A stretch of 64,000 nt of DNA, from assembly GCA_963826525.1 (NCBI GenBank), contig CAWGXH010000004.1, forward strand, positions 1,568,001-1,632,000, read 5' to 3'. Shown here piece after piece: positions 21,275 to 42,476 of this stretch. Both the position numbers and the translations under genes were made by a program. The stretch is from an uncultured Methanomicrobiaceae archaeon (GTDB lineage Archaea > Halobacteriota > Methanomicrobia > Methanomicrobiales > Methanoculleaceae). The notes under the pieces were generated by a model that ran no database searches, was not told the origin of the DNA, and saw only the letters and a list, made by a program, of their open reading frames with translations. Numbering within the stretch: the first letter of the stretch is position 1; every line of letters begins with the position of its first letter.

Positions 21275-22729
21275 ATGGCCGATGAAAGGATATACTCATT
21301 TCCAGCGGTTAGGAGGTGGCTCGGCAACCCGTTTGCCCTTGCGGCTCTCCGTTTCATGACCGTGAAGGATGATTGCGGAGACCGCCTCACTAATGCAATC
21401 AACTACTACCTGGACCCGTCGGAGACCCACTGCTGGAGGTGCAACCTTGCCGGGTGCATGGTCGGGCTTACCCTCCGCCGGAGCGGTAAACTCTTCGGCG
21501 TCAGCGAAGACGATATTCGTTCCGGACTCTCGGAGACGGTCTTTCAACGGGGGTTGAAGAACGTCCTTGAGGGGATCGGGCGCTACGGCGTCACCATGCC
21601 GCAGATCGTCAACGCTCCCTTTATGGTGGTCTGGGACTTCACCCACCGGTGCAACCTCCGGTGCACCCACTGCTACCAGGATGCCCAGAAGGCGCTTCCG
21701 CACGAACTTGATACGGATGAAGCGAAACGTCTCGTGGAGGATCTCGCCGCTGCCGGCGTGGTGATCATCGCATTCTCAGGAGGTGAGCCCCTGATGCGCA
21801 AGGACTTCTTCGAGGTTGCCGCTCATGCCCGCGAAAACGGGATCTACGTGGCGCTCGCCACCAACGGCACGCTCATCACCCCGGAGACGGCCAAAAAGAT
21901 CCGGGATACCGGGATCGACTACGTGGAGATCTCCGTGGACGGCAAGGATGCAGCGAGCCACGACTCCATGCGGGGCATGCCCGGTGCGTTTGCTAAGGCC
22001 GTGGAAGGCATCCGAAACTGCGTTGCCGAGGATCTCTACACCTGTATAGCGACAACGGTTACGCAGGCGAACTACGACCAGGTACCCGCGATATACGATC
22101 TCGCCTCAGACCTCGGGGTGAAGCGGCTGATGTGCTTCAACTTCATCCCGACCGGGCGTGGCGTGGAACTCGTGGATCTGGATATCACCCCCGGGCAGAG
22201 GAGAGACCTGATCCGGTTCCTTATCGGCAAAAACCAGAACGGTGCACAGACGGAAGCGCTCACCACGGCGCCGCAGATCGCAGCAGTGGCTCTCGAGGAT
22301 CAGGAGGGTTCGGGAGTTCCCGTCGGGCACTTCTACGCCGGGGAAGAGATGGAAGGCAGGACACGGCTGCTCGCAGAGTTCATCGGGGGGTGCGGGGCGG
22401 GACGGCTGTACTGCAGTATCGAGCCCGAAGGCGACGTGCAGCCCTGCGTCTTCATGCCGATTCCGGTAGGAAACGTTCGCGAAACGCCGTTCATCGAGAT
22501 CTGGCACACGAGTGATGTCCTCCGGAAGCTGCGGGATCGGAGCGAGCTCTCCGGGGCATGCGGCGATTGCGGGAGTAAGTATATCTGCGGGGGCTGCAGG
22601 GCACGGGCGTGGGCGTACTTCGGGGATCTCAACGCACCCGATCCGGGATGCGTGAAGAACCTCGACTCCTGGGAGTCGCTCCGGAACGGGAAGGATCCGG
22701 CTCCCGAACCCTCCTCGGATGCCCGGTAG
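21275..22729 (+). CDS. Radical SAM/SPASM protein with N-terminal Cys-containing extension
   Basis: CNLRCTHC, SGGEP, SPASM GCGAG...GDVQPC...CGDC...CGGCRARA...DPGC; about 110-aa N-terminal extension with CWRC. Confidence 0.9.
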   Translation: MADERIYSFPAVRRWLGNPFALAALRFMTVKDDCGDRLTNAINYYLDPSETHCWRCNLAGCMVGLTLRRSGKLFGVSEDDIRSGLSETVFQRGLKNVLEGIGRYGVTMPQIVNAPFMVVWDFTHRCNLRCTHCYQDAQKALPHELDTDEAKRLVEDLAAAGVVIIAFSGGEPLMRKDFFEVAAHARENGIYVALATNGTLITPETAKKIRDTGIDYVEISVDGKDAASHDSMRGMPGAFAKAVEGIRNCVAEDLYTCIATTVTQANYDQVPAIYDLASDLGVKRLMCFNFIPTGRGVELVDLDITPGQRRDLIRFLIGKNQNGAQTEALTTAPQIAAVALEDQEGSGVPVGHFYAGEEMEGRTRLLAEFIGGCGAGRLYCSIEPEGDVQPCVFMPIPVGNVRETPFIEIWHTSDVLRKLRDRSELSGACGDCGSKYICGGCRARAWAYFGDLNAPDPGCVKNLDSWESLRNGKDPAPEPSSDAR

Positions 22730-23028
22730 TCGCCGCCGGTTGAAATGAGCGGTGTGGGGAAGCGATCTCCACCGGCAGACCGCTCCCTTCCCCCTCAGGC
22801 GATCTTCCGCTCAGGTGCCCGGGCTAAGGAGGTGACTGATCGGGAATGCGCCCCGCCCGCTCTTCAAGACGGCTACTTCCGGTGGGGCGTACGCAGCCGG
22901 CCTCTTCTCTCCCCTCCATGATCGTCATCCCGATGCAGTTCCTCCGGAGAAACCGACCTGCCATTGAAATGGCGAGTCGGATCTTCCGGAAATGGATAAG
23001 TACTCGTGTCGTGAAGGAACGACTCTCT

Positions 23029-23373
23029 ATGCCTAATGCTGACAGGGATATGAAGATCGCGCGGATCCTCATCATCATATCCATCATATTCGGGATCTTC
23101 GTCGCGGTGACGGTACTGTACATCGGCATTGCGGGATTTTACGGAAGAATCGCTCTTCCTGGCCTGTTTCCTGCAGGCGCGATCGCGATTGGCGTGGTCA
23201 AGATCATCGGGATCGGTATCGGGCTGCTGGCACTCCAGACGCTCAGGGGAGGATCAGTGAGGCGGGCGGGGGCGTATGCCCTCGTTGCATCGTTCCTCCC
23301 GCCGCTGGATCTGATCATGCTCCTTGCAGCGCTGTTCCTCCTGCCGTTACGCCGAGGGAGCGAACCGGCGTAA
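23029..23373 (+). CDS. Small membrane protein (3-4 TM)
   Basis: Hydrophobic ORF located between the radical SAM genes. Confidence 0.6.
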   Translation: MPNADRDMKIARILIIISIIFGIFVAVTVLYIGIAGFYGRIALPGLFPAGAIAIGVVKIIGIGIGLLALQTLRGGSVRRAGAYALVASFLPPLDLIMLLAALFLLPLRRGSEPA

Positions 23374-23513
23374 CTGGTTGAAGGCTTTCCGGAGGCGATC
23401 CGGATTAGACTTTTATAGAATGGCATCGGTTTGTAGCACAATGCCCATGGATCGACGCTGTCAGGACGGTTCTATCATCAGCGACGATAACGTGTATCCG
23501 GAGATCTGATCGC

Positions 23514-24606
23514 ATGGGTGATGCCGTGAACGGCGGAGAGCCGCCCCGGATCATCTCCTGGAACGTGACGTTCCGGTGCCCGCTACGCTGTGCCCACTGC
23601 TATCTCGATGCAGGCGAACGGGAAGACCCTGCCGAGCTCGATACCGCAGAGGGGATGGCGCTCATCGATCGGATCAGCGAGATCGGGAGGCCGATTCTGG
23701 TGCTCAGCGGAGGCGAGCCGCTTATGCGGCCGGATATCTTCGACCTCGCCGGACACGCAACGGAATGCGGCCTGCGGGTTGCCATGGGGACGAGCGGGGT
23801 TTCCATCACCGGCGACGTGGCGGAACAGATGCGGGACGCCGGCATTCGAAAGGTGGCGATCAGCATCGATTCCGCGGACCCTGACGTTCACGATACCTTC
23901 AGGGGCGTGAAGGGTGCCTTCTCCCGGGCTATCGACGCCGTCCGTGCGGTTACGGATCAGGGGATTCCCGTGCAGATCCATATGGCCGTCAGAACGCCGG
24001 ATCCCGACGAGATTGACAGCATCGTCCGGCTCGGTTCAGAGCTCGGCATCCGGGATTACCAGTTCTTCTTTCTCGTTCCCACCGGGCGGGGAAGCGAGCT
24101 TGACGACATTGCGCCGATGGAGTGACGAAGCGGTGATCGGGCGGATCCTTGAGCACGCCCGCGAGCCGGGGCTCTCGGTGCGGCCGACCTGTGCACCGCA
24201 GTTCGTGCGGGTGGCAGACCGGATGGGGATTGACCCGGCATCTGGGGTCAGGGGCTGCATCGCCGGCATCAGTTACTGCCGGATCACGCCGACGGGGGAC
24301 GTAACGCCCTGCCCGTACCTCCCTCTTCCGGTCGGGAACGTCCGGTATCGCACGTTCGGGGAGATCTGGTCGGGCTCGCCGGTGCTGGCCGCTCTCCGCA
24401 GCCCGGATAACCTGAAAGGGAAGTGCGGCCGGTGCGGCTACCGCAGCATCTGTGGCGGGTGCCGCGCCCGGGCGTTCGGCGTCCGGCGGGAGGCAGGAGA
24501 TGTATGCGGCAGTCCGGCACGAACCGGCATGCCGGACGGGGATTACCTGGCGGAAGACCCCTGGTGTCCGTATGAACCGGCTTTTGGAGAGATGCAGGAT
24601 GAGTGA
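23514..24606 (+). CDS. ahbD: Radical SAM/SPASM heme b synthase-like protein (AhbD/NirJ2); apparent +1 frameshift at ~24124
   Basis: PRIISWNVT-CPLRCAHC, FFLVPTGRG, then RPTCAPQF, GCIAGISYC, PCPYL, CGGCRARA, EDPWC; immediately upstream of ahbAB. Confidence 0.75.
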
Positions 24607-25096
24607 TGTGACACTTGACAGACAGGATCGAGAACTTCTCGAGGTACTGCAGGACGATCTCCCCCTGGTATCCCGGCCGTGGCGGGAGATAGGGGAACGG
24701 CTCGGCATGCCGGAACATGACATCCTCGAACGGGTGCAGAGGCTCACTCGGATAGGGATCATCCGGAATATCTCCCCGATCCTCGAATCAAAACGGATTG
24801 GCCTCGCGGCCTCCACCCTCGTCGGTATGCGGGTGCCGGAGGAGCGTATCGATGAGGTTGCGGCGATCGTCAACCGCAACACAGCCGTATCGCATAACTA
24901 CGTCAGGGACCACGAGTACAACGTCTGGTTCACCCTCGCATCTCCCGATGATGCGACGCTCTCCTGTACGGTGGATGCAATCGTCCGGCAGACCGGCCTT
25001 CCTCCGGCGGACGTGTTGAATCTGCTTTCGGTCAGACGGTTCAAGATCGGCGTCCGATTCCGGTTCTCTCCGAACGGTGACGGAGGTGAGGCGTGA
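24599..25096 (+). CDS. ahbA: Siroheme decarboxylase subunit alpha (AsnC/Lrp-like)
   Basis: LQDDLPLVSRP, STLVGM, VSHNYVRDHEYNVWFTL. Confidence 0.88.
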   Translation: MSDVTLDRQDRELLEVLQDDLPLVSRPWREIGERLGMPEHDILERVQRLTRIGIIRNISPILESKRIGLAASTLVGMRVPEERIDEVAAIVNRNTAVSHNYVRDHEYNVWFTLASPDDATLSCTVDAIVRQTGLPPADVLNLLSVRRFKIGVRFRFSPNGDGGEA

Positions 25097-25581
25097 TACC
25101 CCTCGACCGTGCACTCCTTCTCCGGCTTGAGCAGGGGGTCCCGCTGGTGGAAGAACCCTTTGCCGCCATCGCCGGGGATCTTGGGGTTTCGGAAGACGAG
25201 GTGCTCAAGCGGCTCCGTGCACTCGCCGAGGAGGGGACCATCCGACGGTTTGCAGCGCGGATCAATCACCGGAACGCCGGCATCACTGCCAACGCGATGG
25301 TCGGATGGTGTGTGCCCCCCGGCCGGGTAGACCGGTTCGCAGAGGTCGTGATCCGGTTCCCGGAGGTGACGCACTGCTACGAGCGGGCCATCGTTCCCGG
25401 CCGGTGGGAGTACAACCTCTTCACCGTCCTCCACGGTCGGCACCGGGAGACCGTCGATCGCTGCATCGCCCGGATCGCCGAGGCGACCGGTATTGATGAT
25501 TACGTCGTCCTGGTCAGCACCCGGGAACTGAAACGAGCCCCGACAGGCAGGCTCCCACACCTGAAGGAGGGCAGCGCATGA
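25093..25581 (+). CDS. ahbB: Siroheme decarboxylase subunit beta
   Basis: PLVEEPF, HRNAG.ANAM, VTHCYER...WEYNLFTVLHG, STRELK. Confidence 0.88.
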   Translation: MIPLDRALLLRLEQGVPLVEEPFAAIAGDLGVSEDEVLKRLRALAEEGTIRRFAARINHRNAGITANAMVGWCVPPGRVDRFAEVVIRFPEVTHCYERAIVPGRWEYNLFTVLHGRHRETVDRCIARIAEATGIDDYVVLVSTRELKRAPTGRLPHLKEGSA

Positions 25582-26769
25582 TCCGGTTTACCCAGGCTCG
25601 TCTACGGGGATGCACCCGTGAGCGGCTCCGCCCGCAGACATGCAGAGACCGACAGGAGTCAACTCGCATTTACAGAGGTCTATCGGCCGGTGGTCTTCTG
25701 GAACATCACGAACCGGTGCAACCTCGCCTGCACCCACTGCTATATCAGGGGAGGGCCTGATCAGCGGCGCAGCGACGAGCTGACAACGGATGAGTCGATT
25801 GCTCTCATCGATGATCTCGCAGCGATGGGCGTTCCACTGCTCCTCTTCACCGGCGGTGAACCGCTGCTCCGGGAAGATTTCTGGGATCTGGCAGCATATG
25901 CCCGGAAACGCGGGCTCCATGCGGTCGTGAGCACCAATGGCACACTCATCACCCCCGCCGTCGCCCGCAGGCTTCAGGATGTTGGGATCGAGTATGCCGG
26001 TATCTCGCTCGACGGTGCGACAGCAGCCACGCACGATGGGTTCCGCGGGGTGCCGGGCAGTTTTGCCCGGTCTGTCCGGGCACTCGAAAACTGTACCGAG
26101 GCCGGCCTGAAGTGCGGCGTCCGGTTCACCGTCACGAAGAAGAACCAGCACGAGCTCGGCGACCTTATTGCCCTCGCAAAAACCCTGGGAGTCAACCGGT
26201 TCTGCGTCTACTGGCTTGTGCCGAGCGGGCGGGGGAACGAGATCCATACCGATCACCAGCTTCTGCCGGATGAGGCGCGGGCGATCGTCGACCTGATCTA
26301 CCGGGAGACGCTCCTGACCGACCCGTCGGCCATGGAATTTCTGACGGTCGACGCGCCCCAGGATGGGGCTTATCTACTCGAGAGGCTCCAGGCGGACAAC
26401 CATCCGGCAGAGGAACGGGCAGCGTTGCTCCTTGCCCGGATGGGCGGCTGCAGTGCGGGGAAGCGGGTGGCCAACATCGATCCCTCGGGGAATGTCTACC
26501 CCTGTCAGTTCGCACAGTTGGAGCCGTTTCTCATTGGAAACGTGCGGGAAAAGAGGTTCTCCGACCTCTGGAACGATCCGGAGAACCAGGTATTGTCGGC
26601 GTTCAGGGACGCTCCCCTCCGGATGGACGGGCGGTGCAGCTCCTGTGCAGAGCACGAGATCTGCGGCGGCGGGTGCCTGATCAGGGCATACGCATCAGAC
26701 CGTGACATCCGTGCAGGAGATCCGTTCTGTTCGAAGGTGTCCTCCGGGGCATTTCCCGGCCGGAGGTAG
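25578..26769 (+). CDS. ahbC: Radical SAM Fe-coproporphyrin III synthase-like protein (AhbC/NirJ1); apparent +1 frameshift at ~25595
   Basis: N-terminus MIRFTQ(L), RPVVFWNITNRCNLACTHCY, YAGISLDG, RFTVT, YWLVPSGRG, LTVD, PCQF. Confidence 0.82.
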
Positions 26770-27234
26770 ATCTACGTACCGGTGCCTGCTACAGGAGAAC
26801 GACCATGAACAATGCTTTTTCCGTCCCGTGGGGTCGGGCTTCGAAGAATCTGCCTGCCGGGGGCGTGCCGCAACCCGGCCTCTCCCGGTAGGGGCACTCC
26901 TGTTCCCTGACACTGGGGTGCCGGGGGTCTGTCTGATTGGATCAGCATCAAGTCGTGTACCTGCTGTGTATGGGACGAATCCTACAATTTGTGACCCTTT
27001 TTGAATATATCTCAGAGTGGTGGGAGTTTCGAGTTGCGCTCCCGTGATTGACCGGTGCTTTTGGTGGCATTGGTATCTCCTTGTCCGATTCTGCTTGAAG
27101 TGCCGTGTTCGAGAGTTCTCAAAGGTTCTCGAAAGGTAGTTATACCCTCCCTCCATGAACGACCTGCTCCGTACCGAAAACCGGGTTCTACGGCCGGGGA
27201 CTGATTGCACGCACGGTTCGGGAGGCGGTTTCCC

Positions 27235-28516
27235 ATGGATATAGTGTTCGTGCTGAATCTGGCCCTTGTCGTGGTCAGTGGCTTTGTCATTATCACCGGA
27301 CTGGTCTCCCGACGGCTCAGGAGCTGGGATATTCCCGAACCTCTGCTGGCATTTCTCATCGGTGTTCTGCTGGGACCTGCCGTCTTCGGGCTCTTCCAGC
27401 TGCCCTCCGGGGTCAATCTGCCGCTGGTACTGGAGGAGGCCTCGCGGTTGACGCTCGGTATCGGGTTGATGGGCGTCGCTTTCCGGATCCCGCGAGGTTT
27501 CTTCACCCGCGAACGCAGATCGCTTGCTGCGCTCCTCGGGCCAGGGATGGTGATCATGTGGTTTATCACCACCGTTCTGGTATATGCTCTCCTCCGTTTT
27601 CCCCTTCCTGTGTGTCTGCTCATAGGGGCGATCCTCACGCCCACCGATCCACTGATAGCCTCCAGCATCGTGACGGGACATGTGGCGAAGGCCAATCTGC
27701 CCGAACGTCTCCGAAACCTGATCTCCTCGGAATCCGGCGCGAACGACGGTCTTGCGTTCCCTTTCGTTGTCTTCGCGATCCTCCTCGTGCAGGAGGTTGC
27801 CCGGCCCGCGCTGCTGGACTCCGTCATCTACGTCGTGGTCTGGCAGGTCGGCATGGCCGTACTCGCCAGCGCCCTCATCGGGTACGGAGCGGGGGCATTT
27901 CTTCGGTGGGCCGAGGCGCGGAAAACGATCGAAAAGCGCTCGTTTCTGGCATATGCGATTGCCCTTGCCTTTGCAACTCTGGGTGCGCTGAAGGTGATGC
28001 AGGTCGATAGTATCTTAGGGGTCTTCATCACCGGTGTCGTCTTCAGTTCGGTCGTCGAGGAAGAGTCTGTGGAATCCGGGGCTATCCAGAAAGAGGACAT
28101 TCTCGAAGCAGTCAACTATTTCCTGACCGTTCCCGTATTCATTCTCTTTGGCATCATTGTTCCCTGGCATGAATGGTTCTCCTTTGGATGGGCGGCTGTC
28201 ATCCTTTTCATCGCCATTCTCCTCTTCAGACGAATACCGATGCTCCTCTCCCTTCGCTCTCTCCTATGGGAAGAGAAGAGGGGCGTCAATGCACTCTTCA
28301 TGGGCTGGTTTGGGCCAATGGGGGTATCCACCCTATTTTATGCCGGTTTCGCCGTCGGGAAAAACCGGCCTTGCGACGATATGGACCATCGTCAGTCTTG
28401 TCATCGCTGTCTCTATCGTGGTGCACGGTCTGACGGCAACACCGTTCACGCTCCTGTACAGCCGTTACGCCAGACGGAGTCCTGGAGAGGCAGATTCCTC
28501 CTCTCCAACGGAGTAA
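27235..28516 (+). CDS. Cation:proton antiporter (CPA1/NhaP-like); frameshift in an A5 run at ~28362
   Basis: GAILTPTDP, ESGANDGLAFPF, LFRRIP, GWFGPMG; C-terminal helix SIVVHGLT in the shifted frame. Confidence 0.88.
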
Positions 28517-28666
28517 AACCTGCAGCCTTGTTCCCGGAGCAGGGACCGGGACAACTCATCGTGCTGCAGGGCGAGTTTTTTATCTTTCATCAGAGCCTCC
28601 GTTGACGAATATGGGTCTCTGTCTGACACCGGAACGCGCTCCGGAACAGGTGTTTCCCTGAAATGA

Positions 28667-29593: not shown

Positions 29594-29842
29594 ATGCGGC
29601 AAAGGGAGGGTATTGATACGATTGCCCCGGGGCATTTCGCGCTGGAGCGGTATCATTCGGCAAGACGAACCCGGCCTGGCAGGATTGCGGTGATGTGTGG
29701 TGGGAGCGCCAGCCAGGTCATCCCCTTCCGGAAAATCGATTTCTCCCGTGGAGAATTCTGCACAGAGGTCATAGGTGCCCTTACCGCGGCGGCCATTCCA
29801 GGCGATAATACTATTATGCGGGGGGCGCATGGATGGACGGAT

Positions 29843-31234
29843 ATGCGACCGCAGGACAACGTCCCTTCGAGCCTGCTGGCCTTTTCGGTACTTGCTGGAT
29901 GCATCGGCATACTGGCAGGTCTTTTCGCTGTCATCTTCAGGCTGCTGATTGCGCTCTTCCATAACATCCTCTTCACCGGCAAGGCATCGATCGCCTATAG
30001 CGAAACCGTATACACCGCTGTGAGCCCCTGGGGGCCGCTCGTGGTCTTTGTGCCGGTTGTCGGTGCAGTGGGAGTGGCCTTCATCGCAAAGCACTTCTCA
30101 CCCCAGGTATTGCGAAGCGGTATTCCCGATGTCCTGAACGTGGTCTACTACGAGGATGGCATGCTGGCGAGAGGGCTTGCGATCTTCAGGACTCTCGCAT
30201 CTGCTCTTTCCATCGGGAGCGGAGCGCCGGTCGGGCGGGAAGGGTCGATCTTTCAGGTGGGAGCGGCCATCGCCTCAACAGCAGGGGGGTTGTTCTCTCT
30301 CTCCCGGGAAAGGACGCGGGTACTCATGGCGGCAGGCGGAGCCGGCGGGGTGGCCGCAACCTTCAATACTCCGGTGGGGGGATCCTCTTCAGCATAGAAC
30401 TCGTGCTTCAACGGGCAGGTCTTCGTGATGTTATCCCGCTGGTGGTCGCTTCGGGCGCGGCCACGTACATCGGCCGGTACTTCTTCGGATCCGCGCCCAT
30501 ATTTATCCTGACGGGTGCAACGGCACCGGGTGTCGTCGAAGCGCCGCCCGTTCTGCTCCTTTATGCCCTTCTCGGAGGAGCGCTCGGCATCGTTTCGGGG
30601 CTGTTTATCAGAGCTGACGTACGGCACGGAGGATCTCCTGGAGCGTCACTTCGGTGAGAATCTCTACCTCCGCCATGGGCTCGGGATGTTCGCGGTCGGC
30701 ATCCTGATCTATCTGACGATGGTGCTCTCCGGTCGGTATTACATAGAGGGAGGTGGATACTATCCAGTTCAGGAGATCCTCTCCGGGTCACTCTCTGCAC
30801 TATCCGTCCTTCTGGTTCTCTTCCTCTTAAAATTCATCAGTACATCGGTTGCACTTGGTTCCGGTGCATCGGGGGGTGTCTTCTTTCCGGCACTGTTCCT
30901 GGGAGCAGCGTTTGGTGGTGTCTACGGTTATCTCCTTGCAGGGATCTTCCCGGACCTGCACCTGAATCCGCAGACGTTTGTGATCTCCGGAATGGCGGGT
31001 GTCTTCGGATCGACGACCGGAGCGGTATTTGCGGCCATCGTCATGATCTTCGAGATGACGCTCAACTTTAACGCCCTGGTCCCCTCCACAATCGTCGTGC
31101 TGCTGAGTTACGGTGTTCGAAGGCTCATCGTGCGGGACAGCATCTATACCCTCGCCCTCACCCGGGGAGGGCGGCCGGTGCCCGAAGCGCTCGACGTGGA
31201 GGGTTATGGAAATCAGAATTGGGGTTCGAAGTAG
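29843..31234 (+). CDS. CLC chloride channel/transporter; two apparent frameshifts (~30380, ~30612)
   Basis: SGIP, GREG, AAGGAGGVAATFNTPV, GASGGVFFP, IFEMT, SIYT; no CBS domains. Confidence 0.85.
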
Positions 31235-31321
31235 CCTTCCCTACATGGCCTCAGGTCAGGAGCAACGCTACGGATGGATTCCAGCGCAATAATTATATAG
31301 GGTGCGTGTATTGGGTCTCCC

Positions 31322-31906
31322 ATGAGACCAATAGGAGTTCTTCTCATGGCACTTCTTGTGGTGAGTGCATGCGTTCTCATCGCAGGATGCACATCGCCCA
31401 GCGGGAACGCCACCCCGGCAACGACTCCGCCAACCACGACGGTGACGGGTACACCGACATCTGCCCCTACCACGGCGGCAGCAAACGCGACCGCGACGGC
31501 CACAACCGCAGCGAATACGACTGCGACCGCCACGTCTTCGGGCGGTGGGACGTACACCGTGATGACCAGTTCTAGCAGCCAGCTGGGGACATACCTGGTC
31601 GACGGGAAGGGAGTGACCCTGTACAATTTCACGACCGATTCCAAGGATCAAAGTTCCTGTAGTGGAGCATGCGTGAATGTGTGGCCGGTCTTCTACGCCT
31701 CGTCGATATCCGTTCCGTCCGATCTGAACGCGTCCGACTTCAGCTCGTTTACCAGGAGTGACGGGTCGATGCAGACTGCATATAAGGGAATGCCCCTGTA
31801 CTACTATGCCGCGGATACATCGGCAGGTCAGACCACGGGACAGGGACTGAATCAGTTCGGTGGCCTTTGGTACGTCGTTCCGCCAGATTCACCCGGGTAT
31901 TCGTAA
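31322..31906 (+). CDS. Lipoprotein with Thr-rich linker and secreted Y-x4-D repeats (Lipoprotein_15/COG4315)
   Basis: Lipobox LIAGC, LVDGKGVTLYNFTTD, SCSGACVNVWP, YKGMPLYYYAAD, GQG...WYVV. Confidence 0.85.
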   Translation: MRPIGVLLMALLVVSACVLIAGCTSPSGNATPATTPPTTTVTGTPTSAPTTAAANATATATTAANTTATATSSGGGTYTVMTSSSSQLGTYLVDGKGVTLYNFTTDSKDQSSCSGACVNVWPVFYASSISVPSDLNASDFSSFTRSDGSMQTAYKGMPLYYYAADTSAGQTTGQGLNQFGGLWYVVPPDSPGYS

Positions 31907-32990
31907 CTCGAATTTTCTTTTTTTAATCATCCCGGGCAGCAACCCACTCTACACCTGAGATATTCAGGGTACGAGAACATACTCCGGCGTTTTTGAGACC
32001 AGTCCCAGGTAGGGCAATTAACGGCCCCATTACTTCGCTCAGTGCCCCCTCTGCAACGTTCTGTTCGACGACGCTCATTGACACCTGGATAACTTCCTGG
32101 ATTGTAAGCCGAAGTGATCGAATCGGAAGAGATGCACATCGATAGTTCGCGGTCCCTGGTTCACCGGAGAACAGCATGCCCAGAGCAGAGCGATCGGGCA
32201 TTCTTCAGGAGGGGTGAGATGATGGCATAGAGATACCGGATTACCGGGTTTTTCATGCGTATCTGCAGATAACTCGGTTTCGCATCCGGTATGCTAGTTT
32301 CTATTGAAAACCGGGACTGGCAGATCCGATGCACCGATGCGGGTTCCATCGATGATTGTCGACGACATGCCCGGGTTTTCAACGTCATGCCCTTCTCGTT
32401 TTCCCTTCAGGTATTTCAGGGCAACTGCGATGGTCCGGACAAGCACCGGTTTGCCTTTCATCCGATATTCGGCATGCCGGTGAACGTCCCCGGAGGTGGT
32501 GCATCTGTTCCCCGGCCGTGGAGACCCCCGTATTCGGCTCGTGGATCGTGCCGCGGGGGAGCAAGGCAGGTCATGGTTTCATCTGCGATTGCCCGTCCGG
32601 TGGATTTTCGAGACGATATCACGAATAAGACCACCAAGCCGTTGTAGCAGGTGAACGGGCAATCCATTGCCCGGTTAATCTAAATACCATCTTCTCGGAG
32701 TATCGAAAGATTAGCCGGGCGGTACCACTTCTATCAGGTTTTGAGCATCACTATGTCCTAATATTATCAATTAGTTCAGATAAATTAGAACTCTCCTCCG
32801 TTGGGATGAAGGCCGATAAAAATAACTCCTTTTCCAGGCGAAAACTATATGTGTGCAATGCTTATATGGGGGGCGTGAGTCTTGTAGAGCTGCATTCATT
32901 CACAACGATTTCGCCTCACGGAACCTGCTGGATCACCAGTACTGCCACGGCAAAGACGCCGCTCTTCTCTACAAGGCGGGAGTTGATCGA

Positions 32991-34856
32991 ATGCCTCTGC
33001 AACGCAACGTAGTGCTGATCCTTCTTCTGGCAGCTCTCCTCATCCCCCTTGCGGCATCCGCACAGGTGACGGGAACGGGCACGCCGACGAATGCAAGTGA
33101 TTGGCCGATGGTAAATTATGATCAGGTCATGAGCCGGAACAGCCAGCAGACCGAGATAAATGCCTCGAACGTCAACCAGCTGGTGATAAAGTGGGTTTTC
33201 AACACCGGTTCGCAGCCCGTGGAGAACACGCCGCTGATCATTAACAACACGACGTATATCCAGAACAATGCCATGAAGGTGTTTGCGGTTGACCTCGCCA
33301 CGGGACTGCCGCGGTGGGTATATGATCCGCACGTGGCCACGACCGCAGGAGAGGTCCCGCGGGCATCCTCATCGCACGGCATGACCTACAGCGACGGCGT
33401 ACTCTACGTCCCGACCGGCCCGCACCAGACGGTGGTCGCACTCAATGCAGCCAACGGATCCCCCATCTGGGAGTCGCCCGTCCTCGCGAACGAGACAGCC
33501 TTCCGGGTCTCGTCTCCCCCGCTGATCTGGAACAACTACGTGATCGTCGGATCCGCCCTCGGTGACAACCCGCCGTTTACGGTCCCGGCGCACGGTTCGG
33601 TAACAGCACTGAACATAGCGAGCGGCTCCATTGTCTGGCAGAACAGCACTGCCGTAGGGCCCTGGATTGAGGGAGCGAACGCGACCCAGCACGGCGGCGC
33701 GACCACCTGGAGCGGCGGCGCCATCGACGACGCGAACGGGATCGCCTATCTGCCCTGTGGAAACCCGGCACCCGACTTCTCCGCAGAGTCGCGAGTAGGC
33801 CCGACGCCCTACGCCAACCACATGATCGCCGTCGACCTTGAGAGCGGCGTCATTACCTGGGCAACGCCATTCATTGCCGAAGGCTCCGTGCTCCCGAACG
33901 TCACGCTGCCGGATACGCACGACTGGGACACCGCCTGGGGCAGCAACCTCGTGACGGCAGGCGGCACGCAGATGGTCATCGGCCACGACAAGCGCGGTGA
34001 CGTCATGGCGATGGATGCCCAGACCGGTTCGCCGATCTGGTGGACGAACGTCGCACACACCTACCGCGTCGAGGCACAGGCCGCGGAGAACGGCAGCGGC
34101 GAGGTCTGGCCTGGTCCGGGTCACGGCGTTGAGTCCTACTCGGCAGTCGACAACAGCACCGTCTATCTCGCTGCGAGCAGCATGGGGATGAACTACTTCC
34201 TCGGCCACGTCGACCCGGTCTTCGACTCCATCGAGAACGGCGTCGGCAACGGGTCGATAACCGCACTCGATCTCACCACCGGACAGGTGAAGTGGAAGGT
34301 GCCGACCGACTTCCCGACCTGGACGTCGCCCCTGGTGACGAACGGCCTGGTCTTCGCGGGGCAGATCACTGCGACCGGAAAACCGTACTCGTACGGACCG
34401 TTCGGGTATTCGACCGACACGCCCCTGATGCCCTCCGGAGTGCTGATGGCACTCGATGCAGGGAACGGATCGACGCTCTGGCAGGCGGACGTCGGTGCTC
34501 CGATCGGTATCGGCGGACCCTCGATCGGCCAGGGAATGCTCATCGTCCCGACCGGCGGCATCCAGACCCCGAATAAGGGCGGCTACGTCGTCGCATTCGG
34601 ATTGCCGTCAGGCAACGTCACACCCACGAGCACGGCGCTGATAGCCGTCAACAACGTCACTAATATCAGCGGTGTTGCGAACGACATCGGCATGTCGTGG
34701 ACTAACACGTCCAATGTTTCCGGCGCGAATCAGACGATGACAAATACATCGGCATCGAGCACAACCACGACAACGACGAACATGTCCAATGTTTCCGGCA
34801 CGAATCAGACGATGACAAATACGTCGCCATCGAACACAACCACGACAACGATGTAA
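32991..34856 (+). CDS. Secreted PQQ-binding-like beta-propeller protein (quinoprotein dehydrogenase family)
   Basis: Signal peptide; DWPMVN...SR, ENTPLI, repeated A-x-D-x2-TG-x3-W blades, GGATTWSGGAID, GNPAPD, DTHDWD; S/T/N-rich tail. Confidence 0.88.
   Translation: MPLQRNVVLILLLAALLIPLAASAQVTGTGTPTNASDWPMVNYDQVMSRNSQQTEINASNVNQLVIKWVFNTGSQPVENTPLIINNTTYIQNNAMKVFAVDLATGLPRWVYDPHVATTAGEVPRASSSHGMTYSDGVLYVPTGPHQTVVALNAANGSPIWESPVLANETAFRVSSPPLIWNNYVIVGSALGDNPPFTVPAHGSVTALNIASGSIVWQNSTAVGPWIEGANATQHGGATTWSGGAIDDANGIAYLPCGNPAPDFSAESRVGPTPYANHMIAVDLESGVITWATPFIAEGSVLPNVTLPDTHDWDTAWGSNLVTAGGTQMVIGHDKRGDVMAMDAQTGSPIWWTNVAHTYRVEAQAAENGSGEVWPGPGHGVESYSAVDNSTVYLAASSMGMNYFLGHVDPVFDSIENGVGNGSITALDLTTGQVKWKVPTDFPTWTSPLVTNGLVFAGQITATGKPYSYGPFGYSTDTPLMPSGVLMALDAGNGSTLWQADVGAPIGIGGPSIGQGMLIVPTGGIQTPNKGGYVVAFGLPSGNVTPTSTALIAVNNVTNISGVANDIGMSWTNTSNVSGANQTMTNTSASSTTTTTTNMSNVSGTNQTMTNTSPSNTTTTTM
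34701..34850 (+). repeat. Tandem 75-bp repeat (2 x 25 aa) in the tail of the PQQ-propeller gene
   Basis: 34701-34775 and 34776-34850 both contain tccaatgtttccggc-cgaatcagacgatgacaaatac...cacaaccacgacaacg. Confidence 0.9.
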
Positions 34857-35534
34857 CTCCGGGGGGTTAGAGTGAGACATTGATCCGACAGCACGGAAAA
34901 CCGCATAGAACATGCGCAAGGTGACGGTGCACTTCGACGGCACGGGCAACGGTAGATCACGACGTTACGTGGTCTACCAGACACTCCATGCCCTGATCGT
35001 CACCCCCTGCAACTATGATCGACATCTTCACCGCACCAGGCCAAGGTCGGACACCGACCCCTTCCGGTGCCTGTTGTCAACACCAGAGCAGATGAACGAA
35101 CAGATGCGTACCTTGATCTCGGGTTGACGGAAGCGGTGGGACAAATCGACCTCCCTTTTTTTATCTACCGATCAGGTTTCTATGGCTCCGCCTCAGCGTC
35201 GTCTGAGCGGTTGCGTGTTCCCGGGCGGGAAAGCGTATCCGCTTCCAAAGGGCAGGTACAATTGGCCGGAGAGGTGTCCATCTCCCCGCTAATGAGGCTC
35301 CCGCCGGGGCATTTCACCGACCGGAACCATTACATCATCCAAAGATGGTCAAATCCGCTAAAACCTATAGAAGTTGCTGCTCTCGTGCACCATATGCAAC
35401 AAGATTACGGAGGTTTGCCGGCTCCACGATGCTTGATGAAGCCCCGACACCGCGGTTGAGCGGAACTATTCGCAAGGCGAGAGGTCACGAACGACGGGAA
35501 AGCATATATGGCACGAACATTATTATTCGCCTCG

Positions 35535-36771
35535 ATGTATGTAAAAGTCGGAATGTTGGTTCTCCTCTTCGTTATCGGGGCAGCATCCCTGGGGGCGGGA
35601 TGCGTTGGACCACCCGGAAATATCACAACTCCGACGCCGACACCCACGACGCCGGTCACAACGACGCAACCCACAGCGGCACCGGCAGAGACCACTCAGG
35701 CCGCAGGGTCCACCACGAGCATGACTCCGGGAGTGATCGCCGGAACCGGCACGCCCGGCATAACTATCCTATTCCCGCAGCCATATTCTGCGGTCACCTC
35801 GACCGATGTTGAGGTCGGTGTGTTGGTCGATAACTTCAGTCTTGGGGAATCGGGGTCCGCGGGGCATATCATCTATTACCTGGATGCGCAGGCCGTAACC
35901 GCTCGGAACGTATCCGCGAACATGACTTTGACCTCATCGAACGGCACCTTTGCAGTCTCGACCAATACCACCTATACCTGGAAGAATCTCTCACCCGGTA
36001 ACCATGGTTTTGCGGTGGAACTGGTGGATCAGAATAACAAACCGCTCGAACCGCCGGTAATGGCTGTGTCCGAACCGGTGGTTGTAGGACCGAACGCCAC
36101 TGCTCCACCGACGCCCACAGGTCCTATACTCACGTTGGGAACCATCACGCCGCTCCCGCCTGTTACATCACAAGCGACGAACACAACGGCGACATCGGCC
36201 GCGACCACAGCGGCAACGAATGCTACCACGGGAACGACAGCCACGACAGCAACCCCATCCGCGGCGGTAGCAAATGTAACCACGACGGCCACCCCGACAG
36301 CGACCACAACTGCGACGAATGTAACCACAACAGCCACAACCGCAATGAATACCACGGCGGCGACGGCAACACCCACGGCAAACGCGACCCCGACGGGGAC
36401 GTCTTCATCCACGTCGTATACCGTGAAGACCAGCCTCGACCAGTCAGCTGGGGACATTCCTGGTCGATGGGAAGGGAATGACCCTGTACAACTTCACGGC
36501 CGACTCCAGGGATAAGAGTTCCTGCACCGGAGGATGCGTGAATGCGTGGCCGGTCTTCTATGCCTCGTCGATATCTGTCCCGTCCGATCTGAAAGCGTCC
36601 GACTTCACCTCGTTTACCCGGAGTGACGGGTCGAAGCAGACCGCATACAAGGGAATGCCCCTGTACTATTATATCGGGGATTCATCGGCGGGTCAGACCA
36701 CAGGACAGGGACTGAATCAGTTCGGCGGCCTCTGGTACGTCGTCCCCCCGGATTCCCCCGGGTATTCATAA
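35535..36771 (+). CDS. Lipoprotein: Ig-like domain + long Thr-rich linker + Lipoprotein_15 repeats; apparent +1 frameshift at ~36434
   Basis: Lipobox LGAGC; domain with GHIIYYLD and LSPGNHGFAVELV; C-terminal domain near-identical to that of 31322..31906. Confidence 0.82.
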
Positions 36772-37179
36772 CCTCATTTTTTGCCGCTCCCGGCACACCT
36801 TCGCGGACCCGGTATCCCGTGCGCAGACCCTCCCGGGCATTGCGGCTGTTCGTGAACCCATTCCCGGCGGAACCGCGTCGTTGAAGCAGATGGCCGCAGA
36901 TCCCGGGCTTTTCAGAACAACGCTCCTTTCGACCTGAGCGCGATATTCCATGAACAATAAGAACCGGGCGAGTTATAATAATTGAGGCCTGCCCCTCTTT
37001 TGAGCACCCGGCAGCAAAATGAGTTTGGTTTTGCATGCGAAAAGTATATCTTCCCTATGTCGGTAAGGAGTGGCCGAGTCCTGCAGGGGTGCACCATCCA
37101 CTGTGACAATCTCTCGCCGTATCCCCAACGCCGCCGCGACACAGCCGCCGTTCTTCTCTGCAGGGTGGGAGTTGAGAGA

Positions 37180-37909
37180 ATGGTTTTGCAACGCAGAGTC
37201 GTGCCCATCCTGATACTGGCAGTTCTCTTCATTCCTCTCGCGGTATCCGCGCAGACGATGGGAATGAACACATCGACGAATGCAAGCGAGTGGACGATGG
37301 TGAATTACGACCAGGTCATGAGCCGGTCAGGGTATTGAAGCCTACACCGCCGTCGACAACGACACGCTCTATGCCGACGTGAGCAACGGGGCGTTCCGGT
37401 TCTACACCAACGACACGGTCTACCCGGTCTACAATGCGATGCCTGGCGGCATCGGCAATGGGTCGGTGATGGCGGTCGATCTCGCGACCGGACAGTTGAA
37501 GCGGAAGTATGATACGCTGTTCCCGACCTGGACGTCTCCCCTGGTGACGAACGGCGTGGTCTTTGCCGGGCACATCACCGCGACCGGCTGGCCGTATAAG
37601 CCCAGCGCATACGGCGGACCGGAGAAGGGTACGCCCCTTACGCCGTCCGGTATCCTTCTTGCGCTGGATAAAGACACCGGCGAACTCCTGTGGCAGGTGA
37701 ACGTCGGCGCCCAGGTGGGAATCGGCGGCCCCTCCATCGGACAGGGCATGCTCATCGTTCCGACCGGCGGCATCCAGACGCCGAACACGGGCGGATACAT
37801 CGTCGCCTTCGGGCTCCCCGAAACGGGCATGCCCAACGTCACGCAGGAATCAGAGCAGATCCGTGCTCAGCTGACGCCTTCCCCGACATCCGGGTCGGGC
37901 GGAGGGTAA
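37180..37909 (+). pseudogene. Second PQQ-type beta-propeller paralogue with a ~1 kb internal deletion
   Basis: Signal peptide and EWTMVNYDQVMSR are joined out of frame at 37323-37326 (ccgg) to GQGIEAYTAVDN...FPTWTSPLVTNG...GGYIVAFGLP. Both parts match 32991..34856. Confidence 0.85.
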
Positions 37910-39418: not shown

Positions 39419-40625
39419 ATGTACCAGCAGATTCTTATCGCGGTGGACGGTTCGGCATGCTCCGACCTTGCACAGGATGCTGCGGTCGCCCTTGCGGCTG
39501 CAGGAGAGGGGAGCCGCCTGCTGGGCTGCCATGTCTACGCCGCCCGGATGCACCGCACCCGGTTCGAGGATATGGAACCCGGCCTTCCCGGAGCGTATCA
39601 AGAGGAGGAGCGGCTCGGCTACCTCCGGAATACACACGATGACCTCATCTCCGAGGGTATGACGCTCATCTCCGACGCCTATCTCGCTCCTCTTGCCCGG
39701 GCGGCTGATAACCAGGGGATTGCATGCGAGTGCGTTGCACCGGAGGGGCGAAACTACGTCGAACTCCTCCGGCTGATCCGCGAGCGGCAGCCCGGCCTCA
39801 TTGTCCTCGGGGCGACCGGTCACGGTGCGGAGCCTGGCTCAGAGCTCGGCAGCCTCACGGAACGGACGCTCATTGCCGGACGGGGAGGCGACACCCTGAT
39901 CGTGCGGAGGCCCTGGACCTTCAGGAACCGGCCTGTTGTCGTCGGCGTCGACGGGAGCCAGAACAGCTATGCCGCTCTCGTCCGGGCGATCGAGATCGCC
40001 GCCGCCTTCGAAACGACGGTGAAGGCGGTTGCGGTGTACGATCCCTTCTTCCATAGCGGGGTCTTCGGCACCATTGCCGGCGCGCTGCCTGCCGAGGCGC
40101 AGAAACGGTTTAACTTCGCCGCCCAGGAGCAGGCTTCACGACGAGATCATCGACCAGGGGCTCGAGCGTCTCTACCGGACGAACCTGGAACGGGGAGCCC
40201 GTTTTGCCAGTTCGCGAGGCTTTACGGTGGAGACGGAGGTGCTCGCCGGCAAAGTCTCCACGAAGCTCCTCCACTACGCCGCCGCCGTCGGGGCGGGACT
40301 CGTGGTAGTCGGCCGCTTCGGGCTCCACCGGGAGAGCGAGGCACTTATCGGCTCGAACGCCCATACACTCGCCCGCACCGGCACGACGAACGTGCTCGTC
40401 GTAGAGCCGCCGAAGGTGCCGATTACGCTGCCGGAAGCACCCGTCGAACAGGCACCCGCGCTCACCTGGACGCCGGAAGCGGAGGCGATCCTCCGGCGGA
40501 TACCCCCGTTTGCACAAGGGATGGCAAAGACCGCCATCGAGGAGTACGCACGTGGCGAGGGTCTCGCTGAGGTCACGGAGTCGGCCGTCAGGGACGTCTC
40601 CCGGCGGTTCGGGATGGGGGGATGA
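39419..40625 (+). CDS. Tandem universal stress protein with C-terminal PCP_red-like domain; apparent +1 frameshift at ~40132
   Basis: Two USP domains (ILIAVDGS; VVVGVDGS; GxxG...GS); C-terminal WTPEAEAILRRIPPFAQGMAKTAIEEYA. Confidence 0.85.
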
Positions 40626-40629
40626 GCCG

Positions 40630-40827
40630 ATGATCCCCGATGCCCAGGTGGTCGTCTTCATCAAGGTCAAACGGTTCGCTCCCGACTTCCACCGGCATAT
40701 CCTGAAAGGGAAGGTCATGGGTCAGGTCGTCCGGCCGGGAGAGAAGATCCTCGTCTACGAAGTCGCCGAGACGGTTCCCCCCGGCACGGTCAGGATCACC
40801 CAGACAAGCCATATTGAGTTCCGATGA
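40630..40827 (+). CDS. Small protein resembling CDC48/VAT N-terminal subdomain 2 (65 aa)
   Basis: LKGKVMGQVVRPGEKILVYEVAETVPPGTVRITQTSHIEF; coupled to the USP and ABC genes. Confidence 0.7.
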   Translation: MIPDAQVVVFIKVKRFAPDFHRHILKGKVMGQVVRPGEKILVYEVAETVPPGTVRITQTSHIEFR

Positions 40828-41792
40828 GTGCCGAAGAGACTGTATCGATCCGGAGCGTGGAGAAGCGCTACGGAAGCATCCGTGCGCTCGACGGAGTCAC
40901 ACTCACCGTCGCGAAAGGGGAGATTGTCGCGCTCCTCGGGTCGAACGGCTCGGGAAAGTCCACGCTGCTGAAGATCGTGGCGGGGCTCGTCCCGCAGGAC
41001 CGGGGCGGCGTCGCTCTCTTCGGCCGGGAGACGGGGGCGGACCAGGGGGTGCGGCGGGAGATCGGAATGCTCTTTGACCACTCTGCCCACTGGGACGCGC
41101 TCACCGGGTTTGAGAATGCCTGGTACTTTGCCCGCTCATACGGCCTGAAACCGGACGATGCCTGCGGACGGCTCGAACGCCTCTTCTCCAGCATGGCGCT
41201 CGCCGACCGGCGGGACGATCCGGTCTTTACTTACTCCTACGGGATGCGGCGCAAGCTCGCCCTCATCGAAGCGCTGGTGCACGAGCCTGCCCTTCTCCTG
41301 CTCGACGAACCGTCGATCGGCCTCGACTACCAGGCGAGGGTCGCCCTCACCACCCGGCTGCGCGAGGAGGCGGAGCGGGGGGCGACGGTCATCTTCTCGA
41401 CGAACGACGTCCATGAGGCGGCAGGCGTCGCCGACCGGGTCGCCCTCTTCGACCGGGGACGGCTGCTTATCGAGGGAGAACCGTCCGTGCTCGTCGGTTC
41501 GCTGAAGGGCAGGATGACGATTGACCTGGCACTGGCAACGCCGGTGCATATGCAACCGCTGCTCGCGATGGCCGGCGTCGAGGGAGCCCGGGCGGATGAA
41601 CGGGACGGCGTGTTCGTGCTCACGATCATCGCCTCACCGGACGGGTCTTCCTCCGGAGCGTCTGCTCTTCTCGGCCGGGTCGTACAGGAGGTGGCACGGC
41701 AGGGCGGTGCTATCCTGAGCGTTGCTATGCGGGCACCTGGGCTAGAAGACGTATTTCTCGCGTTCATGGGGAAGCCATCCGATGCTCCCTGA
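40824..41792 (+). CDS. ABC transporter ATP-binding protein (exporter type)
   Basis: Walker A GSNGSGKS, signature YSYGM, Walker B LLLLDEP; H-loop His replaced (STND). Confidence 0.92.
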   Translation: MSAEETVSIRSVEKRYGSIRALDGVTLTVAKGEIVALLGSNGSGKSTLLKIVAGLVPQDRGGVALFGRETGADQGVRREIGMLFDHSAHWDALTGFENAWYFARSYGLKPDDACGRLERLFSSMALADRRDDPVFTYSYGMRRKLALIEALVHEPALLLLDEPSIGLDYQARVALTTRLREEAERGATVIFSTNDVHEAAGVADRVALFDRGRLLIEGEPSVLVGSLKGRMTIDLALATPVHMQPLLAMAGVEGARADERDGVFVLTIIASPDGSSSGASALLGRVVQEVARQGGAILSVAMRAPGLEDVFLAFMGKPSDAP

Positions 41793-42476
41793 TACGTTCT
41801 GGAAGAAGGAGATCGCCGAGGATCTCCGAAACCGGCGGGCGCTCCTGCTGAAGTTCGCCCTCCCGCTGGTGCTCCTCTCCCCCTCATGCTCGCAGATGTG
41901 CCAGTCTCGATGCGGGCGGCCGGCCTTGCTGGTGCGGTGATCTTCATCGGCGTCTTCGGCTCGTCGGTCGGGCTGATCCGGATCCGCGAAAGCAGGATGC
42001 TGGAACGCCTGGCGATGCTGCCAGCTCCCCCGCACCGGTTTATCGGGGAGTATATCTTTGCAAACGCCCTCCTCGACGGGGTGCAGCTCCTCGTCCCGGT
42101 GGGGATCTTCCTGGTGGTTAGCCACGCTCTCGCCGGGAGCGCTCTGTGCATCCTCATCTGCTTTGCTGCAGCCGTGGTCGCGGCGAACGCGCTTGGCCTG
42201 CTGGTAGCGATTGCCGCGGGCTCCTCCGGCGAAGGCCACCTCTATGCGATTGTAACGGTCATGGCGGTCTTCATCGTCTCCGGATTCGTCACCCCGGCCG
42301 GGATGGCCTTCCTCGCCGGGATCGGCAGTGCCCTGCCGTTCGGGTACCTCTACGGGGCGATGCTGGGTGCCGGCACTGCTCCTGATCCGCTCACGGTGAT
42401 ACTTGCCCCGCTGACGGCTCTTATCCTCTGCGGGATTGCTCTCGCCGTCTCCCCGCGCCTGTTCCGCGATCTATAA
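41782..42476 (+). CDS. ABC-2 type permease; frameshift in a C-run at ~41880
   Basis: MLPDTFWKKEIAEDLRNRR...KFALPLVLLSP joins ORF 41886..42476 (RESRMLERLAMLP, about 6 TM). Confidence 0.82.

Follow-up and report, generated by a model that had tools for sequence, protein, structure and literature searches.

What a pair of genes for a surface lipoprotein and a secreted β-propeller does in a methanogen, and what it means that the pair occurs twice in succession, is the question raised by a 64,000-nt stretch of DNA (hereafter, the window) from an uncultured Methanomicrobiaceae archaeon (GCA_963826525.1, contig CAWGXH010000004.1, positions 1,568,001–1,632,000). At positions 31322–37909 of the window, an earlier note made from the letters alone had described two lipoprotein genes with Lipoprotein_15 (PF03640) repeats (here A1 and A2, for copies 1 and 2), each followed by a gene for a propeller of the pyrroloquinoline quinone (PQQ) type (B1 and B2), and had read them as a duplicated extracellular redox or sensing module. 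The analysis reported here shows that, of the two copies of the pair at this locus, one is intact and the other decayed. It suggests that B1 may be a surface quinoprotein which feeds electrons to copper and an O2 reductase with the help of scavenged PQQ; as a whole, this is a reading that we regard as evenly balanced between right and wrong. The propeller probably acts as a redox enzyme outside the cytoplasm and represents an archaeal clade of which little has been described; judged by the surroundings of the family, its electrons would flow to blue copper and an O2 reductase.

The order lipoprotein–propeller indeed occurs twice on the + strand, and the 37 nt that end at the two propeller start codons (ATG at 32991 and 37180) match at exactly 31 positions, as had been noted. 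BLASTN aligns the copies in three blocks, which cover the 3′ half of the lipoprotein gene (84.4% identity over 416 nt, 31493–31907/36360–36772), a conserved 47-nt leader (32944–32990, + strand, in copy 1) together with the 5′ end of the propeller gene (78.4% over 194 nt, 32944–33137/37133–37326), and the 3′ end of the propeller gene (70.8% over 490 nt, 34119–34600/37325–37812). The DNA homology of the two copies far exceeds chance. The idea of two working modules is not supported. In B2, the 981 nt (~327 codons) that would match B1 33138–34118 are missing, with a junction at 37325/37326 against 33137/34119 in B1. The N-terminal remnant of B2 (37180–37338, + strand) encodes a signal peptide and ~27 further residues before a stop and is 71% identical to B1 residues 3–50, while the C-terminal remnant (37333–37909, + strand; approximately blades 6–8) lies in another frame, reads GIEAYTAVDNDTLY... 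from 37333, and shares 62–67% identity with the B1 C-terminus and 64% with the homologs at loci L018 and L019. B2 is the remnant of a dead gene, a conclusion that does not hinge on how good the assembly is, and the duplication, so read, consists of one live pair and one relic. The A2 gene (35508–36771, + strand) is broken into two frames (35508–36515 and 36478–36771) by one extra C at ~36434–36435, where A2 has AGCCTC while A1 and two paralogs from contig C3 of the source genome (G000) have AGCTC; C4 below denotes the contig that holds the window. This frameshift may be an assembly error, and A2 would then be intact.

Bioinformatics analysis revealed that B1 (32991–34856, + strand, 621 aa) resembles PQQ-dependent alcohol dehydrogenases. 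The predicted protein starts at ATG 32991 with a signal peptide, continues with a secreted eight-bladed propeller (~residues 36–545) and ends in a S/T/N-rich tail, which includes a 75-nt tandem repeat (34700–34849; 92% identity between the two copies). B1 matches PF01011 with 140.1 bits (cut-off, 26.7), and the same domain is found in 13 whole-length relatives (158–184 bits), in L115, which lacks the N-terminus (167 bits), and at the cut loci L028 and L029 (32–44 bits). A profile was built from an ortholog set of 13 B1-family loci, taken from species-representative genomes of Methanomicrobiales, Methanoculleus, Methanothrix/Methanotrichaceae and Nitrososphaeraceae. Against the PDB it matched 28 sequences at E ≤ 1 × 10−10, all of them PQQ dehydrogenases save two (BamB), with 1kb0 at 1.4 × 10−31. 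Likewise, the AlphaFold2 (AF2) model of B1 (pLDDT, 85.2; above 90 for 442 of the 621 residues) has PQQ alcohol, methanol or sorbose dehydrogenases as its top 27 Foldseek matches among those listed (ranks 1–30; 4 × 10−30 to 1 × 10−22), with PedH, XoxF, qhADH and MDH first (TM, 0.57–0.72) and BamB later, at 7 × 10−20 and weaker. The match of B1 to PF13360, the BamB family, reaches 82 bits and lies below its PF01011 score.

The positions expected of an active site were examined in 107 homologous sequences. W240, N258 and H129 are invariant, with the +18 spacing from W240 to N258 that is seen in the MDH-like chain 5xm3, whereas H310, D311, W312 and D313 (HDWD), as well as K334 at a Lys/Arg position, are each at least 90% conserved. 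W240, N258, D311, D313 and K334 align with the GGGTxW, GN, WD and (K/R)NG motifs of 1kb0, 1kv9 and 5xm3. D192 is invariant as well and lies in a GSALGD motif where GxxGAE stands in those enzymes, an equivalence set by eye across a HMMER gap. The roles of W240 (PQQ stacking), N258 and D192 (metal), the catalytic Asp and K334 (Lys/Arg at O5) are those we take them to have from the literature on methanol and alcohol dehydrogenases (MDH and ADH). The type I/II PQQ alcohol and methanol dehydrogenases (PedH, 6zcv; qhADH, 1kb0/1kv9; MxaF, 1w6s; XoxF, 4mae) have in common with B1 the eight-bladed fold, PF01011, the Trp, the Asn of GN at +18, the Asp of HDWD and the Lys/Arg (DKRG). Profile, fold and conserved active-site positions place B1 in the PQQ dehydrogenase family, and it is therefore likely to act as a redox enzyme rather than as a BamB-like scaffold. 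The quinoprotein-like enzyme proposed in the earlier note is in this way supported, while the purely structural propeller that it had named as the alternative is at odds with the rank of BamB below the PQQ dehydrogenases by profile and by fold.

The family to which B1 belongs comprises 472 clusters at E ≤ 1 × 10−30 among the 8000 candidates scored, and its members are repeatedly found with type-1 copper proteins (cupredoxins). A cupredoxin domain is fused to the propeller in L018, L021 and L024 according to Pfam, and in L025, L026 and L027 according to alignment with the Pfam-supported domain of L021, including its H...C..H....M pattern; at L019, a cupredoxin gene lies directly behind the propeller gene. 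Altogether, cupredoxin is fused to the propeller or directly behind it at 7 of the 13 ortholog loci. Adjacent cupredoxin genes are also present at L024 and L030, a cupredoxin stands beside the propeller in L114 and L115, and all six of the closest full-length clusters (P0088–P0093, 60–67% identity) carry one. In L025–L027, the cupredoxin-like domain of the propeller protein is N-terminal, and the L027 sequence ends before the COX region. Terminal oxidases form the second part of this context: CydA-like genes adjoin the propeller at L018, L019 (two genes) and L020, and in the Nitrososphaeraceae loci L025 and L026, COX2 and COX1 lie directly downstream of it, along with DUF1404 genes. In a quick IQ-TREE phylogeny from which the B2 fragment was excluded, B1 is sister to the cupredoxin-fused Methanomicrobiaceae proteins (SH-aLRT, 99), and a paralog on contig C3 branches one node deeper (SH-aLRT, 95); both branches are long (0.49 for B1 and 0.57 for the C3 paralog, against a median of 0.15). 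Because of this sister position, B1 appears to have lost the cupredoxin that is fused to the propeller in its closest kin. The N/S/T-rich tail of B1 sits where the nearest relatives carry a linker and the cupredoxin.

The C3 paralog itself lies in a locus of the source genome (L031, C3:448000–467900) that has a fuller set of genes. In order, these encode a H+-efflux P-type ATPase, a cupredoxin with a broken propeller-like gene, whose match contains two TGA codons, a lipoprotein that joins DUF4399 to Lipoprotein_15, the propeller, which shares 54% identity with B1, a pair of CydA-like proteins and a protein with fasciclin and cupredoxin domains; DUF1214 is also present. Cytochrome bd forms without a quinol site (OR-N type) are described, in the passages on operon context of 10.1101/2021.01.16.426971, as commonly placed in operons with alternative electron donors. 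The two tandem CydA-like genes beside the propeller at L019 and in the C3 locus recall the CydAA′/OR-N arrangement of the same source, a likeness by description; the CydA-like genes near propellers have weak Pfam scores (41–67 bits) and lie outside the window.

According to the mechanism proposed here, the B1 propeller would oxidise an external substrate at a PQQ/Ca-type site, and the electrons would reach blue copper and, from there, an O2 reductase in the membrane, which would provide a strict anaerobe with an O2-scavenging chain at its surface. Having lost the fused cupredoxin, B1 would use free-standing cupredoxin lipoproteins encoded elsewhere, and PQQ would be taken up from outside. The last step has an analogy in the membrane glucose dehydrogenase (mGDH), which Escherichia coli, a host without pqq genes, makes as an apo-enzyme with a PQQ site that must be filled from outside. 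It differs from B1 in having an N-terminal membrane domain and reducing ubiquinone, whereas B1 is a secreted protein with a signal peptide and scores 108 bits against the TIGR03074 cut-off of 833. Electron transfer from quinoproteins to cupredoxins is known from methylamine dehydrogenase and amicyanin and from ADH IIB and azurin of Pseudomonas putida HK5. In these systems of aerobic bacteria, the two are separate proteins, whereas they are often fused in the archaeal orthologs, and in B1 the cupredoxin is missing. The B1 clade also differs from the type I/II PQQ dehydrogenases in its partner domain, which is a cupredoxin instead of a cytochrome c; B1 itself carries no redox partner domain. No match for PQQ-dependent, methanogen and cupredoxin together was obtained in the literature searched. 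Among the functions offered in the earlier note, oxidative stress gains support from the cupredoxin fusions, from the neighbouring cytochrome-bd-like and haem-copper oxidase genes, and from a haem-synthesis-like cluster 4.5 kb upstream of A1, considered below.

The other member of the pair is less easily assigned. A1 (31322–31906, + strand, 194 aa) contains two PF03640 repeats (102 bits; cut-off, 24.4) with a CxxxC motif, behind a lipobox (...LIAGC) and a T/A/P-rich linker with N-x-T sequons, and the C-terminal reading frame of A2 contains two such repeats as well (89.5 bits), the A2 lipobox being ...LGAGC and its T/A/P linkers long. The lipoboxes of A1 and A2, the signal peptides of B1 and B2, the S/T-rich, sequon-containing linkers and the CxxxC motifs are all visible in the translations, as had been reported, and were judged by eye and not by a signal-peptide predictor. 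In contrast to the near-identity claimed for them, the Lipoprotein_15 domains of A1 and A2 share 86% of their residues. Homologs of A1 and A2 bear the name of COG4315/PF03640, “predicted lipoprotein with Yx(FWY)xxD motif”. A1 scores 94.9 bits with NF040526, the equivalog of the SCO0930 family, and stays below the cut-off of 275. The AF2 model of the A1 domain is of high quality (pLDDT, 96.6). It has no Foldseek match in the PDB at E ≤ 0.001 (best, 0.8), the best Z of VIA-align over 48,161 chains is only 2.7, and phmmer of the domain against the PDB gave no match below E 0.2. A function of COG4315/PF03640/Lipoprotein_15 was not found in the literature searched, nor was one of DUF4399 (PF14347). 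A disulfide redox role of the CxxxC motif, suggested in the earlier note, is not supported.

A2 also contains an N-terminal DUF4399-like domain (~35745–36107), which has no counterpart in A1. It scores 17.8 bits with PF14347 (cut-off, 28), and BLASTP relates it to the C3 lipoprotein (4 × 10−14), to a PF14347 protein of L020 that itself scores 35.9 bits (5 × 10−9) and to the DUF4399 domain of L115 (3 × 10−8). DUF4399 is fused to Lipoprotein_15 in A2, in the C3 lipoprotein and in cluster P0047, and to cupredoxin in L115 (5720–6412) and in a paralog of the source genome at 1.50 Mb of C4 (C4:1501938–1502603). These alternative fusions look like a domain swap inside one architecture.

A number of findings weigh against the reading of the pair as a surface quinoprotein chain, and the first group of them concerns the lipoprotein. 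Its adjacency to the propeller might be incidental, in that young, mobile Lipoprotein_15 paralogs have settled in a variable surface-protein island and either act with other proteins, such as the type-III P-type ATPases of cation homeostasis, or alone; this is an explanation that we take seriously without finding it probable. Of the 55 genomes sampled from the family, the source genome, with five loci, is the one in which PF03640 is found; it is absent from the other 54. At the 13 ortholog loci, nine of which have at least 3 kb of upstream sequence, tblastn with the A1 domain detected no Lipoprotein_15. In a class-level sample of 400 genomes besides the source genome (13 with the propeller, 75 with PF03640), 5 of the 13 propeller genomes lack PF03640, and 67 of the 75 PF03640 genomes lack the propeller. 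Two Nitrososphaeraceae propeller genomes are without PF03640, and two Methanotrichaceae possess it at a distance from the propeller. The A1 domain retrieved 79 metagenome loci, 35 of which have at least 2.7 kb of flank, and no propeller is present at 34 of these 35, including L039, which is related at 78% and extends 4.7 kb in the downstream direction. The neighbours of the bacteria-like loci in this set are mixed (ECF sigma factor, 5; cupredoxin, 3; Rieske, 2). Among 20 extra Lipoprotein_15 loci, hand-picked for genus spread from the PF03640 genome matches listed, none has a B1-family propeller and one has DUF4399 with a distant propeller; the neighbours there include DUF4399 (two loci), a P-type ATPase (three) and FMN-reductase/rubredoxin-like genes (two). 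Type-III P-type ATPases adjoin Lipoprotein_15 at 3 of the 5 loci of the source genome (including L032 4122–7488 and L033 6344–12328), and P-type ATPases do so at L121, L129 and L135, the three just counted among the 20 loci of other Methanomicrobia.

The history of the genes is consistent with such mobility. The synonymous divergence (dS) of the lipoprotein domains (0.17–0.61 over ~110 codons) is lower than that of the adjacent propellers (0.70–1.02), and therefore the lipoprotein genes have spread or been homogenised after the propeller paralogs arose. A1 and the 160 nt upstream of it are closest not to A2 but to a third paralog at C3:485k (88–90% nucleotide identity), which stands beside a H+-efflux P-type ATPase with no propeller nearby; the region upstream of A1 (31161–31321, + strand) was duplicated along with the gene and is 84–88% identical to the sequence upstream of the Lipoprotein_15 gene at C3:485k. 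The spacer between A1 and B1 (1084 nt, against 408 nt between A2 and B2) alone contains a decayed transposase gene fragment (32118–32475, − strand), with 72.5% nucleotide identity over 364 nt to C4:121051–121728. The similarity to a 226-aa transposase-like ORF on C4 is also seen in translation, and the fragment has no Pfam match.

On the other side, the arrangement recurs. A Lipoprotein_15 gene lies directly upstream of the propeller at three loci of the source genome, two of whose propellers, B1 and the C3 paralog, are on different tree branches. The same order is found on a metagenome contig (L054), the only propeller locus among the 35 with enough flank, and its propeller belongs to a distant clade (63% identity to L020 and 52% to B1). 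In genome G263, ~1 kb separates the two genes, which are convergent, and the distance between them is 9.2 kb in G122 and 13.4 kb in G321, in each case within a single contig. In G122, the gene most similar to A1 (78% identity) is 3.2 kb from a DUF4399 gene and a distant propeller gene. PF03640 is present in 8 of the 13 propeller genomes of the class-level sample and in 67 of the 387 without propeller (8 observed against 2.4 expected; Fisher p = 6 × 10−4), and within one family (f2) in 7 of 8 propeller genomes against a baseline of 68 of 224 (p = 0.001), with the proviso for both values that the genomes are related and not independent, and p overstates the association. The co-occurrence outside the source genome, the absence of which the earlier note had listed among the findings that would refute its proposal, is thus found in L054 and G263 as well as in the enrichment. 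The claim that the lipoprotein is the working partner of the propeller fares less well: the adjacency and the enrichment speak for it, and its absence from the 13 ortholog loci and the 54 other family genomes, together with its equally frequent position beside P-type ATPases, speaks against it. The link between lipoprotein and propeller is real and non-random but loose, with the lipoprotein as a non-obligatory accessory of the surface island. As a weak guess, it could be an extracytoplasmic helper in cation or cofactor handling, or a tether. The predicted complex of the A1 domain with B1 residues 30–545 scored 0.00 in two runs, which counts neither way. Export of Ca2+ to the quinoprotein by the P-type ATPases nearby was considered and rejected, because these belong to the H+-efflux type IIIA (1043 bits) and to MgtA (952 bits).

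A second group of findings concerns the propeller and its cofactor. B1 might be non-catalytic, either as an “empty quinoprotein” or as a BamB-like scaffold for binding or assembly at the surface, with no PQQ in it, which we consider unlikely. The vicinal Cys-Cys of MDH and ADH is replaced by Pro-Arg in B1 (aligned to 1kb0), the metal-binding Glu (MDH Glu177) appears to be replaced by Asp, and B1 remains far below the NCBIfam cut-offs of TIGR03074 (given above), of TIGR03075 (153.3 bits; cut-off, 480) and of TIGR04528, the acido-empty-quinoprotein group A (126 bits; cut-off, 650); its 82-bit match to the BamB family points the same way. Based on the TIGR03075 score, B1 therefore represents a divergent clade and not a member of a curated subfamily. 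In Cys-Cys and TIGR03075 and, by the alignment made by eye, in Glu, it departs from the type I/II PQQ dehydrogenases. The vicinal Cys-Cys is not universal in the family, since glucose dehydrogenase is without it; mGDH lacks the Cys-Cys ring and has His and Lys where MDH has the disulfide and Arg. No pqqC (TIGR02111) over the cut-off was detected in the source genome and three relatives, or in the five genomes that hold L020, L021, L023, L025 and L026. This absence from nine family-bearing genomes is equally compatible with an empty site and with scavenging, and control genomes gave no pqqC match either, so that the power of the search is not demonstrated. The models of pqqB and pqqE gave generic sub-threshold matches alone. 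Because the source genome is 87.6% complete and the controls are blank too, the absence of pqqC from it is likely rather than proven.

What argues against an inert B1 is that the positions for PQQ stacking, the metal and the catalytic base are invariant or at least 90% conserved in the 107 sequences, and that the 27 leading structural matches listed are all PQQ dehydrogenases. Furthermore, with cupredoxin fused or directly behind at 7 of the 13 orthologs and oxidase genes adjacent, an inert scaffold makes no sense. For an active B1, scavenged PQQ would be the natural reading, because pqqC over the cut-off is missing from the source genome and the eight others, and on this point the scavenged cofactor of the earlier note still reads well. 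The hosts of the B1 clade, archaea without pqqC over the cut-off, differ in this respect from those of the type I/II PQQ dehydrogenases.

The remaining points against the proposed chain concern its copper and oxidase parts and the assembly itself. There is no cupredoxin or oxidase gene in the 64-kb window, and therefore the chain is inferred from relatives and from another contig; tblastn (E ≤ 1) found no cupredoxin remnant after B1 or B2. Genes split over two or three frames are found elsewhere in the window (LeuA, 16094–17619; NhaP, 27205–28605; ClC, 29594–31234; Usp-PCP_red, 39419–40625) and at other loci of the source genome (L031 17473–19900, L033 6344–7105 and L033 12350–14501), and the kinds affected include P-type ATPase, Lipoprotein_15 and propeller genes. 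These splits are either indel errors of the assembly or widespread pseudogenes and bear on every single-base call, since with so many genes split the single-base features of this genome are unreliable. In public reads, the shares of sampled words found in three runs were 0.13, 0.07 and 0.00, with no RNA run listed; exact pieces of 151–203 nt were obtained from contigs of the three runs, and none of them spans ~36434 (the A2 frameshift) or ~37326 (the B2 junction).

A third explanation takes electrons in the opposite direction. In PMC10470525, SqpA (Mthe_0878) of Methanothrix thermoacetophila is described as a highly expressed surface PQQ protein, with a role in electron uptake that is speculative by its authors and set alongside copper-binding surface proteins; the model is repeated in PMC12072023. 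By its description, SqpA resembles B1 as a PQQ-type propeller at the surface of a methanogen, and it is mentioned along with surface proteins that bind copper; the passages on SqpA describe no lipoprotein partner or oxidase context. That B1, which has relatives of 52–63% identity in Methanothrix, similarly brings electrons into the cell for direct interspecies electron transfer is distinctly improbable, given that the conserved neighbours are O2 reductases and not Fpo or Hdr, that in the aerobic Nitrososphaeraceae the family is followed immediately by genes for haem-copper oxidases, and that the published role of SqpA, in the passages that present it, rests on expression data.

The haem-synthesis-like cluster upstream of A1 belongs to the same context. 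It occupies 21587–26754 on the + strand (21212–26766 in a wider delimitation), 4.5 kb upstream of A1, with three genes for radical-SAM/SPASM proteins and, at 24617–25554, two for NirD/L-like siroheme decarboxylases (PF22451, 64.8 and 60.7 bits). The best NCBIfam matches of the radical-SAM genes are AhbD (298 bits; cut-off, 500) and AhbC (332 bits; cut-off, 650), and the cluster is assigned tentatively to an Ahb-like alternative haem synthesis, because these scores lie below the equivalog cut-offs. PqqE was considered for the same genes and rejected, as TIGR02109 (cut-off, 381) gives 110–151 bits and is outscored by the AhbC/AhbD models; the statement that the window has no pqq genes accordingly holds. 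Ahb-like clusters also occur 3–13 kb from a propeller and Lipoprotein_15 in L113 and L115 (two genomes of another family). In Table 2 of PMC8351635, AhbABCD is given for none of 32 Methanomicrobiales.

Taken at its widest, the context would mean that three archaeal orders share an undescribed extracytoplasmic O2-reducing chain, composed of a PQQ-type propeller with scavenged cofactor, blue copper and a quinol-independent cytochrome-bd-like or haem-copper oxidase, in which the Ahb-like cluster supplies haem in methanogens, and Lipoprotein_15, with or without DUF4399, is a swappable module that takes the place of cupredoxin behind DUF4399 and serves as a new partner in cation, cofactor or copper handling. 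We consider this widest reading unlikely. The matter bears on how methanogens and other strict anaerobes withstand oxygen in soils and wetlands; the surface quinoproteins known from methanogens have up to now been considered solely as possible contacts for electron uptake. The cupredoxin fusions, O2 reductases, haem genes and presence in aerobic ammonia oxidisers suggest instead an outward chain that consumes O2 with a cofactor the cell does not make, an idea testable with one recombinant protein. If true, it would offer a first clue to what two widespread domains, COG4315 and DUF4399, do.

Two minor observations concern the surroundings of these genes. The transposase-like ORF on contig C4 adjoins an ORF whose translation, by eye, resembles a group II intron reverse transcriptase (the two together, C4:120128–121728). 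A set of Usp+PCP_red, ABC ATPase and ABC-2 permease genes adjoins the propeller both in the window (39419–42473) and at L020 (1369–4455), where a CydA-like gene comes after the set.

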